The position numbers were made by a program, and so were the translations under genes. Below, piece by piece: positions 2,601 through 11,600 of a stretch of 64,000 bases of DNA (position 1 is its first letter; every line of letters starts with the position of its first letter). Source of the DNA: Ophelia neglecta (lineage: Eukaryota); NCBI GenBank assembly GCA_965285935.1, contig OZ260663.1, forward strand, positions 55,056,001-55,120,000. The letters are read 5' to 3'. The notes below the pieces were generated by a model. The model ran no database searches. It had not been told where the DNA came from and worked only from the letters and a program-made list of their open reading frames with translations.

Positions 2601-5600
2601 CTGGAAAGAGGCAGCAAGAAATCTGCTCAGTTTTGGATTCAGATTAGATTTTAATTGTGTTAATAGCTTCATCTACTGATTACAATGACAAACATGCTGC
2701 TGTGGCTAAATTAGCTAGGCTGGGCTGGGTGTGTAGAGAACTGGACTGGAGGAGACATGGGGCAGTGACTTTTAGTCCTGATTCTATGGAACTCTGTTGA
2801 TTAGGCATACAGCAGAATTGACATAAAACCAGGTCTCAACATTTTAGAAATTTCAAATTTAAATATGGAAAAGAACTCACAGTTTTCCTGAAATAGTCTT
2901 AATTTAAAATCAACTAGATAAGATACCCCCTGAATACTGGGCTAGATGTGTATTGTCTCCACAAACTGAGATTAGTTGGGCATCCACAGGGTTATACTGT
3001 CAAAAAGTAAATTTAGATGGTTAGTAACATGGTATGACTATGTGATCATAGATACCAGCCACCAACCAAGTTCCCCCAAACCATAATCCTTATAATATAA
3101 AGACCACCAATCCAAAGGCCCACCAAAAGACCCTGTAAGAAATCTGCCCACCTCAGAAACCCAAGCCAAGCAATCTATTGCACCAGCCACCAGCTAATAA
3201 ATAGATTAGCATGAAAACATTTTGGTATGAGGTTATGAAGGAAATATTTTGATAATTATTTCTGAGGATGGGCAATGAATAGCATAAATATCTCTGAAAC
3301 ATCACTACATGACATATACTTCCTTCATAACTTCAAAATAATAACTAACATAAATAATGCTGGGTAATAGGATGCCTTAATACATTAAAATATGCAGACT
3401 TTTTCCAATGTTTTACAACCCATACCAAGTTGCAGACCACCCACAATTTCTCTGTAAAAATAAATAAATTCCTTCAAAAAGGAGGAGGTATCCCACCATA
3501 AAATCCACTTCCACCAAACCGTTGTTTCAAATGAGTTAATTAACATATGGCTAACAGCCTTCCATACTTAATTTAAATGAACACTAGTGATCTTAAAGTC
3601 ATCATGACTATTTTCCATCAGACCACACAAAACCTAATGCATCCTGTCACCCATTCATAACAAGCAATGTTTAATTTCATATAAATTTATGTAGAAATAA
3701 TCAACCATTATGTATCAAAATGGTTGATAACTCCTACACACATTGCACTAACATCTCATGCTTTTTTTGGTATTTATATATACAAACATAGTTACAGTTA
3801 AGAAGGTCACCAATGTGTCACTTTTCAGGTCAGCATGGGAGTGGCACATTTCTACACAACATAATAGTTTAAAAAAATATAAAAACAATTCTGCCTTCTG
3901 AACAGGTGTGCCTCTTGATGGCCAACCGATGGTAACACATTGATGACCAATGTTCACTATCATCAGAAAAACCAGGCTCCTAAGTATACACCTTGGCAAA
4001 AAGGAGGTTAACCTAAGATTTATAGCATTTTTATTTAGTGTGCAAATAAAATATGCAGATTGTAAATGGCATCTCCGGTGTTCTTAATGTTTGAAGTTTA
4101 ATTTTTTCTTCTTTTGCTAAGGTGCAGACTCGTGAGGAACTAGGGTATATTGTCTTACATAAAGATAGAGTTAAGTGTGTTTGCCTGATACATACCTTAC
4201 CGGCCATGGCAGCCTGCTGAGCAATGTCCAAAGGAGGTCCCAAGGACCTCCCTGGTAGCTCCTCTGTTTTCTCCTCCTCCCTACGCTTTAAGCATGCTGC
4301 CTTAGGGTTTAAGTTGCGCTCTGGAAATAAGCACACATTAAAATATGAGTTTCAAATTGATAAACTTGACAGATTACTAACTATCAAAACTGCTATTCAC
4401 ACCAAATAGAAACCAGATACACCTGAATATCTTATACTTTATTATTTTATTTATATATATCATACAATAACAATATTTAAAGAAATGTTCCATAGCATGC
4501 TTGAATACAGGCAGACATATAAATACAAAATGCTGTTAGGACATTTTTTTCTTCAATAAACCATAACCAGGGGTTAGTGGCCACTCTAGCTTAATTCTCA
4601 ATTAAAAGCGTTTACACACATAAAATATACACACTTGGGTTAACATAATATAATAATAAATGCTGTTAGTCCACAACAGAACATTACCTCTGACTTGCTG
4701 CTCTAAACTGGTTATTACTGACACTGCATGTTGCAAGATAGTCAGCTTTGTTTGGGGTTTGTCCGTGCTAAGGTGAAGTGAGCACATGCGACCCAATTCT
4801 TTGAAGGCCCCGTTGATATCACGCACACGTATCCTGTGGGGGAAGAGAGAAGACGGGAGTTTGGAGGTTGTTCATGCATGCACTCACATTCATACTAGCA
4901 GAGGTGGATTTAGAAACCATTGGGATAGAGGGGCGAGGGCATTATTGACAAAGTAGGGTTCCCAGGGTATTCCCATACGGACTTGGGTAGGATATGGGGC
5001 ATCTCTCGTAGGATTTTTTTTGGTCAGTGTCAGGGCTTGGGCCCAAGTCTTGCCGAGCAACACGGCTAGTACAATTCCTTCTGCAGCCTCTCAGGACTGT
5101 TCTGGCTTTTTCAAACATGCAAGCAAACCATGCAGAAGCATTCTGTGTCAAGGCCACTTGTAGATCAGGCAATCGGTTGCTTGAGAGTGGTTTTTACCTC
5201 GGACTTGTTGCTCAAGGGTAGTGATGACATTGACTGCCTGCTGCAGAATCATCAGCTTGGTCATCGGCTGACCATTGCTAGTATGGATAGAGATCATGTG
5301 ACCTAACTCTTTGAATGCTTCGTTTATGTCCCGTACTCGTAATCTGTTGGGCAATCCAGTGGCATTGAGAATTAGAATGGACAATACCTTAACAGCATAT
5401 ACAAGAAAACAAGCACAGTAAAAATGTCCAATCAACTGTTTATCATACACTATCAGCAACATAAGAAATTAATTTTCACTTATATTTACTTGTTATTTTT
5501 CCAATTTATATTTTCAGAAAATTGTATGTTCCTTGTTATTCTGTGTACTCCTGTGTCAACTTAGCCAACAACACTTTTGCTCTTTTCTCCGTAAACTTTC

Positions 5601-8600
5601 ATCAACACCAGCTGCCTTTAGCCTTACCTTTCTCTAGCATTATTAGCCTGCCGCCGCAATCGTTCACGCTCTGCTTTAGATTCTGGGCTCTCATTGGGAT
5701 CATCTTCCTCCTCGTTTCTGTAAAAGCCAAACAATCTATCACATCCGTAATAATGGGTGATGAAAATAATTGGCACAATGGCACCCTACCATAATCACAA
5801 GAATTAAAATGGGTTTTCCCAAAATGGACATTAATATAACTTAATGCATCCAGAAACCACATAAGGTGTTGAGAATGCTAAAAACAGGCAAATAATGGGC
5901 AACAGGGAGCTCTTAGAGTGGCTTGTACTAGCACATTCCGCATGTCAATGAGAAGGTTAAATAAAATATTCCCCTCATCACTTGAAGAAGTCCTGAACAG
6001 ATATTCTGATGTGAAATCAACTTACTCTGAATCAAGACTTGGTCCAAGCGAGTCCCTACAATCACAAGGGGAAACAAAAATAACATGAAATGGTAGAAAT
6101 AAAACAAGGTTTTGCCATACACTTTAGAAACCACTACTAGGGTGGAGAGACTGTGAAGACAGGGTGGTATATATGATGATAATGCTACCCTGCTTACACT
6201 GGCCCTACTATGACTTTAGCCATACAGAACATTGACATATTACCAAATGATTACTATTTTGTGCAGCTCATGTGCAAACAAAAGTTAATTAAATAATGCA
6301 AAGGATCCAAAATTTGGATGTTTTAATGGGTGACCTAGTCCATGTGGTCTTTTGGTTGCCTAAGGCTAGTATGTCTGAGAATAATATTAAAGCAAAGACA
6401 GCCATGAAAGCCGAGGAAATATATTAATACTGAGAAATTGTTCATTGGAGGCCTGGGGAAAAAAAGCATAATTTTTACTTAGTACTCTGACAAATAATGG
6501 AGCATTATACAACTTAACCAGTTAGCAAGCGAATCCAAAAAAACATCGAGAAATCAATATGGTTGGCATGCTAGTTTGAAGTGTTAAATACAAGGATATA
6601 TGCCTATATATAAATATATATATCAGGAGAACCCTATCCGTTCAAAGGAACAGATTAGGTTTTTACTGGCTATTATCTCTGAATCACTGAAGAAACCAAG
6701 TTGAAATTGGCTTGTATAAATTTTGAACATTCTGCGACAATAAATAAGCAAATAAAAAACAAAAGAACACCTTATACCAGCAGACTGGTTGGAATTGGCA
6801 TTTATACCAATTAATATCAAAACTATCAACTATATAGTCATTTCCTATCCATATAAAGTTTCTAGTATCTAAATAGAATTTTTATTTTCATTAGTACAAG
6901 TCGACTCAGTGTGCCAGTAGGTTTTTACTTACTGCCTTGATCTTTTGGATGGCGGAGCACCACTCTGTGGTGTCAAAGGAGAAGTCATATCTGACAGTGA
7001 TCCCGAAGTGCGACCAGATTCCTTCATTTTTTGGTCTTTCTTACTACTTTCATCGGCCGTTTTTTCAACTTTCAATTTTTCTATTTTTATGTGGCCATCC
7101 GTAGTTTGTTCTGTTGGTTGTTCATTTCTTAAGTCTATAAATGTGGGTACAAAATATAGATTAGGTAATGGAAATTGAAAGCAAATCAGTGCATGATGAT
7201 AATTAATATACTAGATACATGGTCAGTTTCTGGAATTCTTTATTGCAAGAAAGATATGTTCTTAATACATAAATATGAAGATATTTTATACACAAGGGAT
7301 GCTCCTTCTACACAGTTCTTGTAGATTGTTTATTAATCTATTTTAATGTAAATATATTCTTACTATTGACAGATGATTGATCCGGGCCTGTGTGTCTATT
7401 ATGTGATCGCTCATCTGATAATGATGTGTGGTTGCCACCCTGAAATAATTGAGGAAAATTAATATGTAAATATGATATGTATTATGAGAGCTGCCTGTGA
7501 CTGGGTTGAGTATGAGTGATGGTAGATTATGAGGGAGTGACAGCCTGTTATATTTGACCCTGGGTATATATCTGGCCCTGGGTATATGATGGTTGATTAT
7601 GAGGGAGAGATAGGCTGTTGACCCTGGGTATATGCTGTCCCATGTTACCCTTTTCATCGCCCCGCCTTGTCTGATGAGGCAGGCTGGTTTCCCTGACCCT
7701 CCTCCACCCGTGCCAGCCTCTCCCCACTCCACATGTGTGACTTGTTAGAGGACGCTCCTACTATTAACCACCCTCCCTCTTCACCGCAGTCAAGTTCATC
7801 CCTGGTCACTGAAAACAGGAATAAATGACTCCAACTTTGACCCACACCCTCAAATTTATCCACATGATATTGACTTCCACTGCGTCAGGCACTGCACAGT
7901 GACTTCTCCAATTTGACAGAAGGAGGCAAGAAAATTGCACCTTCAATCTCTCTACACCATTTGCCATCTGGTTGCATTATACAGCATAGGAGGGGACAGT
8001 TTTCAACACTTTGACAGCTACAGAAAGTGAAATCAGAGGCATGTTTTGTTGGAACTGGATACCTGCCATACACCATGATATTAGGTGATATGTGTCAGGG
8101 AGAGAGATGGCACCTGGGTGCGGGGTTGCTCCAGAGCGGTCCTAAGGAGGGCCTCACTACAGGTATGGGGAGCTAGCCATGATACAGCACCATGCCAGCC
8201 CCAGGCCCACTCACAAGCACCTGTTGTACTTCAGCTACTGCTCAGCTACAAGCTGGATACAGTTTCTATCACATCCTCCACATCTACACACCCCACTCCC
8301 ATCAGTATGGTGAATGTCAATTAACCCATCAACACAATGGGACTGGCTCAGACCACCTACAATCATGGATCTCTCTAAAAACCAAGCCAATCAACTATCT
8401 ACACTCATCATTCCATCATACCTACAGCAGCCAATCCTAACTCACACTTCCTCTTGTCATCTCTTTGTTAAAACCATACCTCGCTGCCACATAATGCCAC
8501 ACAGCACTACTTACAACTAGATTTTCTAAATGTTACAGAGAAGGCGTAAGCAAAGGGGGGATTAAAAGAAACTGATCTCCTACCAAATCATAATGGTATC

Positions 8601-11600
8601 CATAGAAGTCCTGTGCATTGGTGTATTGTAGACTGGTATTGTACGGCTGTACTTGGTTTCCATGATATGTATTGTAAGGTAGAGTGGTATTGTTCTGTAG
8701 AGAGCCTTGCTGGTCCTGAATGGCACTCGGGTTGTATTGTGCAGCGTTGTTGTACCACGTACCACCTGAGGCGTACCCCTGTTGGTAGGCTGGTGGGAAC
8801 TGGGATATATCCAGTGGAAACTGGGAATACCACATGGTGCCGTTTCTCACACCATTAGCCACTAAAATATATCCAAATAGCTAAAGGAAGCTAGGACTGT
8901 CAGTGGAATTAAGGCTCATTAAGTTTCCTTGAAGTCATCAAGGGAGGAGAGCTTTGCCAATAAAGATGGTTGTATGACGGGTCCTTAGCCTGCTCTGGCC
9001 CTTCCCCTTCCGATCCAAGCCTACTCCCAGCCTACTCCACTCTGAAGCTTTTTCCAAATCTTTCACGATATGCTGGCTTGATTTGTTCAAGACCTGCCCA
9101 TCTTGAAGTATTTTGTACCAGTTGAATATACACAGATGGAAAACATTGGAAACAATTATCTTTGAAGCAGCTCATTGAGCAATATTGACCAACAGTCATA
9201 GAGAGCAGCATCCAATCACAGGGGCACAATCTTACCATCAGAACTTGGAAACCCAACTAGCCAGATACTTGGGGGCTTTGGAAAGATAACATCTAGCATA
9301 ACTGGTTACATGTGGTTCACATTATCTATGATGTTGAGATATACCATCTGAGCACTCAACATGTAATTTTTTTGAACTTTTTCTTACACACCCTTATGCT
9401 AATGCCCTTGGCACAGTTTTAATTTGAAAGCCATGCAATCACACACCATTGCCTGGAATGCGACTTTCAAGCATTTTGGGCCTGTGGTTTTCAAGATGAG
9501 TGTACATGCCTGCTATGTGGGAGTGCGACCAGTGATTTTGCCACTGTATATTTTGAATGATGTGCGAGGACATCTGAGCAGGTATGATATGATGTATTTA
9601 TATTACCCTCCTCTGTTCCTGCCGTTTTTCTAGAACATGTTTGATCTGTTTTGACACAAGAAGCAGAGACTCCTTCCCACTCCTTCCCAGCAACAGTTCT
9701 ACCTTGACACATGTAGTTGCTATGGAAACCAGGGGATCAACCCATCAATAATTACTTTCAGAGTGATCTGATGGGCAGATCTGAGAGGCGGCTGATGTTT
9801 ACACTGGTGACTTTGTAAACTGTAGATTCTCAGGGAGGTGGGTAGGGTTCCCTGCCTTTGACAGTTACAAAATAAACAAAGTGGCCTCAGTAGCTCCAGA
9901 TGTTGTGTACATCTCTGGCAGATACTAGCCTTCTGTGCTGGTCCCAGTCTTCTCTACAGACTAATTAGCTCATTTAGATAATCTCTCATCAAATGTAAGC
10001 AGAATACTCCTTGAAATATCATGGCGTTCTCTATGATGAAAGTTGGCTCAGCTTGGGCTTCAAACGAGCAGGGTCATGTTATGAGAACACATCAAAATGC
10101 TCACCTGGTTTCAATCAGGATCATCCTGGAGTAAGACAGCTCAGCAAGCTTTATGAGCACTATTTACCAAATTCATCTTCACTATGTGATGATCCCAGCC
10201 TCTTTAACGTGCTAAAAGGTGTCCATGCCTTCCACTAAAGCATCTTTGGAGAGCAATTCTCTCAAACCATGATCTTGAAGGTCAGCACAAGTAATTTCAG
10301 ATAAAGAATTTATGGAACTACAGATTTTTATTGTATATTGTCATATTTCCCCCCTTAGAGCAGTCAGGGCCAATTATGGCCTCAATAATGGAGTAGTGTT
10401 TCTGATGTAAATAAATCACCTGCCCTGGCCAGTCTGTTATAGATGAGTAGTCCAGCTGAGCCCAAGTGTTCGTGTTCATTTGCTTGTATGACATCACTTT
10501 GTAGATGTATCCCTCAGCTGTGTCTAAAACCTGAAGCAGGCCTCCATTACAGTACAGCACAGGCAGCCGACCCCTGCAACTTTGGTCAATATTTTGAGAC
10601 AGTATAACCCCGAGGTATGGCACCTTGTCAGAGCCCTGCTTCCAATTGCCCCGCTATTTACAGAGAAGACCCTGTGTAATTTTCCCCATACTTTCCATAA
10701 TTTTCCCCATACTTTCCTTTCGGTAATTAGCCATTAAATCGAGATGCCCCTGTGATTTTATTGGCTCCATCTTTGCTAGTAAAGCGATTCCTGGTTGTTT
10801 CCTGCCCAGTTGTTCTGTGGGGTTTGTGTAGTGGCTACAAGAGAAGATTGGCATAAGGGCAGAGAGAAACAACAAATTTGCATTCTCCGGTAGACCACAC
10901 GCGCTTGGGGGTTAATTCTGCACAGGACTGAAGCTCAAAACCTGTGGTGAACTCTTATTGGAGGGACAGAGGACTGAGAATAAATTCTAATCATCAGTAA
11001 TTGTTTGATGACTAGACTGTCAAAATGAAATCACAGCCTACCAGTTTCATGTCAATCATACAATCTCTCTGACTTACATCTTACAAAACTGATGACAACA
11101 AAAAGGCAATTGCTCAAATGTCAAGCAGCAACATACTAAAACAATTATTTATTTATAATGTTTTTTTTATCACTGTCCAAAATAGTTTGTGTATAAATAA
11201 TGTATGATAAAGTTCTTGCACACAAAATTAATGACTCGTAGGTTTTCTTATTTATCGTATAAGCAGGCAATATCTTACCATGTGTGATTCCATCATGCCC
11301 ATGCCCGGCGGGTATGCTGTGCCCATGTTGCCGGACATGAAGCCATTGGAATGTGGTCCGGGCATCATCCCGGGCATGTGCCCAGGGGGCATCATTTGGC
11401 CTGACTCCGCATGGTTTCGTAAGACATGGATGGCATCGTCCAGCCGTTCCTCCATTTTGCTTTGCTATAAGAAAATATCTTGGTAATAATACGTTGACAA
11501 TTTATTTTCAGGCATTGTCATTTTTGTTAATGCCAGTTAAGTTGGAATCCTTGTTAGTAACATTGAAACATTTATATGTTTTACTAGAAGTGATGAGGTG

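Follow-up and report, generated by a model that had tools for sequence, protein, structure and literature searches.

The minus strand of the stretch of DNA analysed here (64 kb of Ophelia neglecta, hereafter the window) carries an E-protein gene (daughterless/TCF3/4/12) with two neighbouring exons for the HLH half of the protein. We regard it as moderately probable that these exons, A and B, form a duplicated and likely mutually exclusive pair between which Rbfox, acting at a cluster of UGCAUG motifs, likely chooses, with long-range RNA helices as at most an accessory. The exons of the gene follow each other in the order U, A, B, D:

5628-5717, minus strand: constitutive exon U, encoding the basic region (ending ...RQANNARE-R, with a phase 2 donor GTAAGG); the only copy in the window.
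5198-5343, minus strand: HLH exon A, 146 nt, of the derived spiralian type, with a poor pyrimidine tract and a donor (GTAAAA) without a G at +5.
4688-4833, minus strand: HLH exon B, 146 nt, of the ancestral type, with a strong pyrimidine tract and a GCAUG at exon position +45.
4201-4320, minus strand: constitutive exon D, whose 3' end is uncertain (donor after 4201 or after 4196).

The strength of pyrimidine tracts and donors was judged by eye. Pfam HLH has two matches in the whole 762-Mb genome (G000), which are exons A and B, and the gene in the window is hence the genome's single E-protein gene; most lophotrochozoans have one E12/E47 gene (accessible part of PMC5381572). Exon A also matches solved TCF4/E47 chains in the PDB. 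The two exons have the properties of mutually exclusive duplicated exons: they are homologous neighbours (71% amino-acid identity) of 146 nt each, entered in phase 2 and left in phase 1, with valid AG/GT splice sites. Because length and phases are the same, including both exons or neither would shift the reading frame. The pair is thus likely mutually exclusive, as the earlier note on this DNA had held, and encodes alternative HLH halves; for this species, the exclusivity and the tissue pattern are predictions from sequence. The A and B isoforms would read DNA with the same basic region; helix 1, the loop, and helix 2 would differ between them, a difference that likely affects the choice of partner or the strength of the dimer. 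Steric exclusion through a short middle intron was rejected on length, this intron having 364 nt. A search of positions 3500-6500 against Rfam returned no match at E up to 1.

A metagenome scan with an exon-A pattern identified 11 loci, all distant from the window; the pattern found no locus in genome_contigs and viral_contigs. The number of HLH exons varies between these loci: three in L001 (the same as L002), five in L003, two in L010, three in L011 (partial, close to L003), and one in each of L004-L009. Every complete HLH exon fits the 146-nt frame, the last exon of L011 being incomplete. The donor of exon A is without the +5 G in all four loci compared (window, L010, L001, and L003). Upstream of its HLH cluster, L001 has two alternative basic-region exons (L001:4150-4414), where the window has one; with such a pair, the choice of basic region could be independent of that of the HLH exon. 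In L004-L006 and L009, a single A-type HLH exon occurs with no B before exon D, and in three of these loci, 68-nt tandem repeats carry two to seven copies of the exon D acceptor together with the beginning of that exon.

The intron between exons A and B contains two pairs of UGCAUG motifs:

5116-5134, minus strand: two UGCAUG downstream of exon A (+64 and +77 from its donor), through which Rbfox is predicted to enhance A.
4873-4882, minus strand: an overlapping UGCAUG pair ahead of exon B (-49 and -45), where its branch point is expected to lie; through these motifs, Rbfox is predicted to silence B.

The entire 64-kb minus strand has 19 UGCAUG, four of them within these 364 nt (Poisson P 5e-6). 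The intron after exon A has 4 copies in the window, 2 in L010, 3 in L001, and 2 in L003, numbers that are matched by 0, 15, 14, and 142 of 3000 shuffles, respectively; the four loci are not independent, as L001 and L003 share intron elements, and the last figure makes L003 weak by itself. This count excludes L004-L009 (single HLH exon), L002 (duplicate of L001), and L011, in which exon A1 and the part of its intron that bears the motifs are missing. Among all 4096 hexamers, UGCAUG is the only one present at least twice in each of the four introns after exon A; its antisense word has 1, 0, 0, and 0 copies there, and the remaining 12 intron stretches have one UGCAUG in 6339 nt. The placement seen in the window is repeated in L010, with UGCAUG at +47 after A and at -30 before B. 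No UGCAUG precedes the later exons of L001 and L003, so that the silencing of B is backed by two loci, the window and L010. The GCAUG at +45 of exon B recurs in three of the four loci and is partly forced by Arg-Met codons. The arrangement agrees with that of an FGFR2-like Rbfox pair: the motifs lie downstream of the exon predicted to be activated and upstream of the one predicted to be silenced; they are conserved (at least two after A in 4/4 loci, before B in 2/4); and the genome encodes Rbfox, with an RRM exon (G000:C8, L012) that matches RBFOX1/2 and ASD-1 in the PDB (E 7.5e-09). Neither this cluster between the exons, which is the strongest of the conserved signals, nor the frame constraint figured in the earlier note.

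By the Fox-1 rule, downstream sites enhance and upstream sites repress; in calcitonin, a Fox site at -34 blocks SF1 at the branch point, and in FGFR2, Fox-2 activates IIIb and represses IIIc, being necessary but not sufficient (accessible part of PMC2777236). Our proposal for the window is that exon A would be skipped when Rbfox is absent and exon B used as the probable default, given the poor pyrimidine tract of A and the missing +5 G of its donor. When present, Rbfox would enhance A from the +64/+77 sites and, from the -49/-45 sites, block the branch point of B, so that A would be used. Transcripts with stray double or zero inclusion would be cleared by nonsense-mediated decay, which removes frameshifted forms. 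A predicted local 12-bp helix (4887-4876 with 4789-4778, P 1.0), the strongest ungapped helix of the region, joins the UGCAUG pair before exon B to the GCAUG within exon B and encloses the 3' splice site of B; this stem around the acceptor is weaker in L010. Since it covers the silencer motifs, the stem could compete with Rbfox and hide the -49/-45 sites.

The earlier note had proposed control by competing long-range pairings in the pre-mRNA, in which a docking-like stretch in the intron after exon B pairs either with the branch-point region of exon A or with a segment just after the exon A donor. All the complementary blocks that it listed exist where it had placed them on the minus strand:

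5364-5398, minus strand: upstream arm of blocks 1-3, which covers the candidate exon A branch point; function putative.
5420-5429, minus strand: 10-nt block complementary to 4539-4548, with a net energy of -3.2 kcal/mol after opening costs; probably a chance pairing.
5179-5190, minus strand: donor-side "selector" of the earlier note; chance-level.
4581-4602, minus strand: downstream arm of blocks 1-2, the docking site of the earlier note.
4530-4548, minus strand: downstream arm of block 3 and of 5420-5429, with a second copy of its core at 4660-4669.

Block 1 (5364-5374 with 4592-4602) consists of 11/11 Watson-Crick pairs, block 2 (5375-5380 with 4581-4586) of 6 bp including one GU, and block 3 (5383-5398 with 4530-4545) has 15 of 16 positions paired, with two GU and one mismatch. 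The block at 5420-5429 is paired at 10/10 positions, and 5179-5190 pairs with 4581-4590 over 10 bp with a 2-nt bulge. The CUAAU at 5375-5371 does fall inside the upstream arm, and the candidate branch A of exon A (5372, at -29) is within the 11-bp block. The three collinear blocks reach -26.0 kcal/mol, of which blocks 1 and 2 give -16.4 kcal/mol. After opening costs, the 11-bp block, both arms of which are locally open, nets about -7.4 to -8.3 kcal/mol and is the best helix between introns 1 and 3; block 3 nets -0.1. The three contig sets (from one sample) have allele differences at 5447-5462 and 5569-5619 and none in blocks 1-2; a change at 5391 in one of the three would break one pair of block 3, which is too little to infer selection. 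Two other helices, neither claimed as real, pair 5120-5110 with 4505-4495 (net -8.4, the best between introns 2 and 3, covering one UGCAUG; 67/300 shuffles in the single-helix test) and 5285-5276 of exon A with 4900-4891.

We compared the pairing energies of eight region pairs with those of dinucleotide shuffles. For the 40, 60, and 100 nt that precede exon A, pairing with the intron after B has z values of -3.15, -3.06, and -2.85, each matched by 2/300 shuffles; among 300 unmatched genomic pairs, 32, 42, and 60 reach equally low energies. The branch-point helix is equalled by 2/132 real pairs matched for GC and, with accessibility counted, by 20/300 matched null pairs; its 11-bp block taken as a single ungapped helix is ordinary (77/300). 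Overall, the branch-point helix is modestly above chance, exceeding it in two of four tests with a nominal p of about 0.01-0.07; with eight region pairs tried, this is a suggestive rather than a secure signal. The pairing of the exon B acceptor with either flanking intron is at chance (155 and 190 of 200 shuffles). When the whole region (1.4 kb) is folded, the three blocks have a probability of 0.02-0.03, the 5420 block of 0.08, and the donor-side rival of 0.00004, low values that are weak evidence, as the ensemble fold ignores proteins and co-transcriptional order.

Related loci also have helices near exon A. A 14-bp helix between a site 37-54 nt before exon A and the intron after A is matched by 2/300 shuffles in L001 (4875-4888 with 5561-5574) and by 1/300 in L003 (25-38 with 510-523); it would loop out A and cover the branch region. 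Two positions are changed on both sides between these two loci, a comparison with n=2 and a palindromic core. The window and L010 have no such helix (101 and 151 of 300).

A first alternative is that a single long-range helix is the main control: 4581-4602, with 4530-4545, would lie over the branch point of A and keep A off with no competitor, and Rbfox or a fast co-transcriptional commitment would let A splice before the partner, some 760 nt downstream, is made. The z values near -3, the 2/132 GC-matched pairs, and the open arms of the 11-bp block speak for it, as do its net energy, similar to that of the relatives' helices (-7 to -11), and the location of the L001 and L003 helices. It is weakened by the 20/300 null pairs found when accessibility is counted, by the low ensemble probability, and by block 3, which adds next to nothing after opening costs and loses a pair in one contig set. 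The comparison with the relatives weakens it further: in L001 and L003, the partner lies in the next intron instead of after B, in sequences unrelated to those of the window; L010 has no such helix in the part covered, where its intron after B is cut off at 20 nt; and the paired arms of the window have no match in the distant related loci. We consider this alternative unlikely. A lesser role, in which a helix of 11-17 bp over the branch point helps keep A off, seems possible, if doubtful. The helices of L001 and L003, together with the docking site of L003 described below, raise the odds that the branch-point helix of the window acts similarly with a different partner, without showing it; along with the two tests above chance, these similarly placed helices mean that RNA structure may matter more than our preferred Rbfox reading assumes.

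The competing switch of the earlier note has poorer prospects still, and its specific form is probably not real. In this switch, 4581-4590 docks either with the branch-point region of A, leading to B, or with 5179-5190, looping out B and leading to A, which would enforce exclusivity. The two pairings are each possible on paper and are incompatible with one another. The second is at chance (z 0.04, 149/300 shuffles), nets -3.4 with a negligible ensemble probability, and, with accessibility counted, is not even the best helix of the 5179-5190 segment. A docking site common to both arms is matched by 97/300 shuffles, so no site in the window has two or more better-than-chance partners, and the two helices overlap by the 6-bp minor block only.

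Such a site does exist in the same gene of L003 (L003:1-4233), which is a clear Dscam-like system and stronger than anything in the window. Its docking site lies about 940 nt after the last HLH exon (about +936 to +959 after exon 5) and pairs with elements after exons 2, 3, and 4 over 13, 12, and 19 bp, respectively, with a sum of -79.0 against -53.8 in shuffles (z -8.1, 0/200). Two of the selectors lie in 20-nt blocks identical in L011, which is weak support given an overall identity of 84%. In L003/L011, the intron after L003 exon 2 has a further conserved element, complementary to the selector and some 100 nt downstream of it, which looks like a balancer or anti-selector. The selectors of L003 follow later, extra exons; pairing between its exon A1 and the docking site is poor (net positive), and L001 has no common docking site (63/200 shuffles), which makes docking appear to serve the extra exons. 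Hence, the docking/selector idea is apt for the gene family through L003, with its three selectors, and finds no support in the window, where we consider the switch quite improbable.

Repeated CUAAC/ACUAAC words occur after exon B (4660-4669, 4530-4540; 4573-4578) and resemble Quaking/STAR or branch-point decoy sites. The ACUAAY words at +18 and +110 and the CUAAC at +149 after exon B, of which the former are what we take to be a Quaking/STAR-type motif, explain the repeated CUAAC words used by block 3. Control by such STAR/Quaking-type proteins, by PTB/hnRNP as in vertebrate TCF3 (PTBP1 and hnRNP H1; accessible part of PMC6795145), or by splice-site strength with decay of frameshifted forms as the only agents is the least probable of the alternatives, as the ACUAAY words of the relatives are spread over several introns at no common position and the UGCAUG enrichment would be left unexplained.

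The protein comparison covers 237 proteins listed, of 877 and 1116 matches. Among these, both exon types recur in annelids, molluscs, and flatworms, again with the boundary after NNARE-R, and the closest named matches to exon A are Dimorphilus (88%) and Lamellibrachia and Ridgeia (85%). Of the 237, 15 join U, A, and D (among them Dimorphilus, Ridgeia, Mytilus, Haliotis, and one Logan contig protein), these being mostly gene models rather than proven mRNAs, and 71 are of the U-B-D type. Both exons are read through in gene models of Lamellibrachia, Macrostomum, and Schistocephalus. Magallana has three A-type copies, Mytilus and Haliotis use A, and Octopus and Lineus use B. Three crustaceans have a tandem HLH exon pair of their own. 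Tandem HLH exons of other types in crustacean, unnamed, and oyster proteins (P0025, P0029, P0030; P0001, P0003-P0005; P0121) suggest that the HLH exon was duplicated repeatedly across protostomes. The Lamellibrachia protein P0016 has two tandem MEERLDDAI segments, possibly a second exon pair; the window, compared with it at 11255-11464, has only one exact MEERLDDAI copy.

A tree built from 50 HLH halves unites the 20 A-type rows in a single group (support 89/97, present in 90% of bootstrap trees), a result that is partly circular because the group is defined by a motif within the 48 columns used. This group is apart from vertebrate E12 and E47, which group with other vertebrate E-proteins. In the vertebrate read-through proteins (22 among those listed), the duplicated unit includes the basic region, which is unduplicated in the window. 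The spiralian pair is thus not placed as an orthologue of the vertebrate E12/E47 event, as the A type groups alone; together with the difference in the duplicated unit, which supports independent origins, this makes the vertebrate and spiralian duplications look independent.

E-proteins are common partners of proneural and myogenic bHLH factors. Taken jointly, the observations lead us to a tentative scenario, to which we give limited credence: a spiralian E12/E47-like switch, older than the split of annelids, molluscs, and flatworms, would swap only the dimerisation half and be read by Rbfox (neurons or muscle versus stem and other cells), and RNA structure would have been layered on it repeatedly (a helix hiding the branch point of A, in the window and, with other sequences, in L001 and L003; docking at five exons in L003), a two-exon switch run by proteins turning into a cluster run by structure. 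If true, an old switch marked by Rbfox would provide at least two forms of the E-protein that differ in their dimer surfaces, a convergence with vertebrate E12/E47. The clusters of one, two, three, and five exons in one gene form a natural series for the origin of docking sites.

The likely either-or pair of HLH exons, which bears a conserved Rbfox signature, is apparently undescribed and ancient; the types of mechanism, an Rbfox-run pair and docking/selector pairing, are already known. The open literature, mainly abstracts, yielded no account of spiralian E-proteins with alternative HLH exons and none of annelid docking sites; the supplements of PMC5381572, PMC9741552, and PMC8373072 could list such exons. 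The accessible main text of PMC5381572 has no match for "splic", and the accessible texts of PMC9741552 and PMC8373072 have none for TCF3 and TCF12.

The duplicated exons, the complementary intron elements, and the candidate site downstream of the last exon liken the gene to docking/selector systems, of which Mhc is an example. The accessible part of PMC8791459, which has no match for Mhc, gives the exon 4, 6, and 9 clusters of Dscam1, 14-3-3xi, srp, RIC-3, MRP, dynamin 1, and CD55. L003 fits this type well, unlike the window, where the second pairing is at chance, the common stretch is 6 nt, and the arrangement comes from a single species. In human ATE1, helices hide the 3' splice-site regions of exons 7a and 7b, and a long-range helix biases their ratio in a manner that depends on elongation rate (accessible part of PMC7797038). 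The window likewise has two exons and a helix over a 3' splice-site region; in ATE1, either acceptor is hidden through one common element and the long helix favours 7a, whereas in the window only the acceptor of A has a partner. Vertebrate TCF3 (E2A), with exons 18a/18b and products E12/E47, belongs to the same family and reaches the same outcome, alternative bHLH isoforms through a duplicated exon; its duplicate includes the basic region, whereas the window swaps the HLH half only, and its control by PTBP1 and hnRNP H1 is unlike the Rbfox control proposed here. The systems to which we liken the proposed mechanism are FGFR2 IIIb/IIIc (Rbfox2), calcitonin/CGRP exon 4, and C. elegans egl-15 5A/5B, in which UGCAUG lies between the exons, the upstream exon is activated, and the downstream one is silenced, as predicted here (accessible part of PMC2777236). 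Unlike FGFR2 and egl-15, the window holds a spiralian transcription-factor gene, known from its sequence alone and with no ESRP- or SUP-12-like co-factor identified. The elements of calcitonin exon 4 at -34 and +45 (same source) resemble the -49/-45 UGCAUG pair and the GCAUG at exon position +45 of the window.
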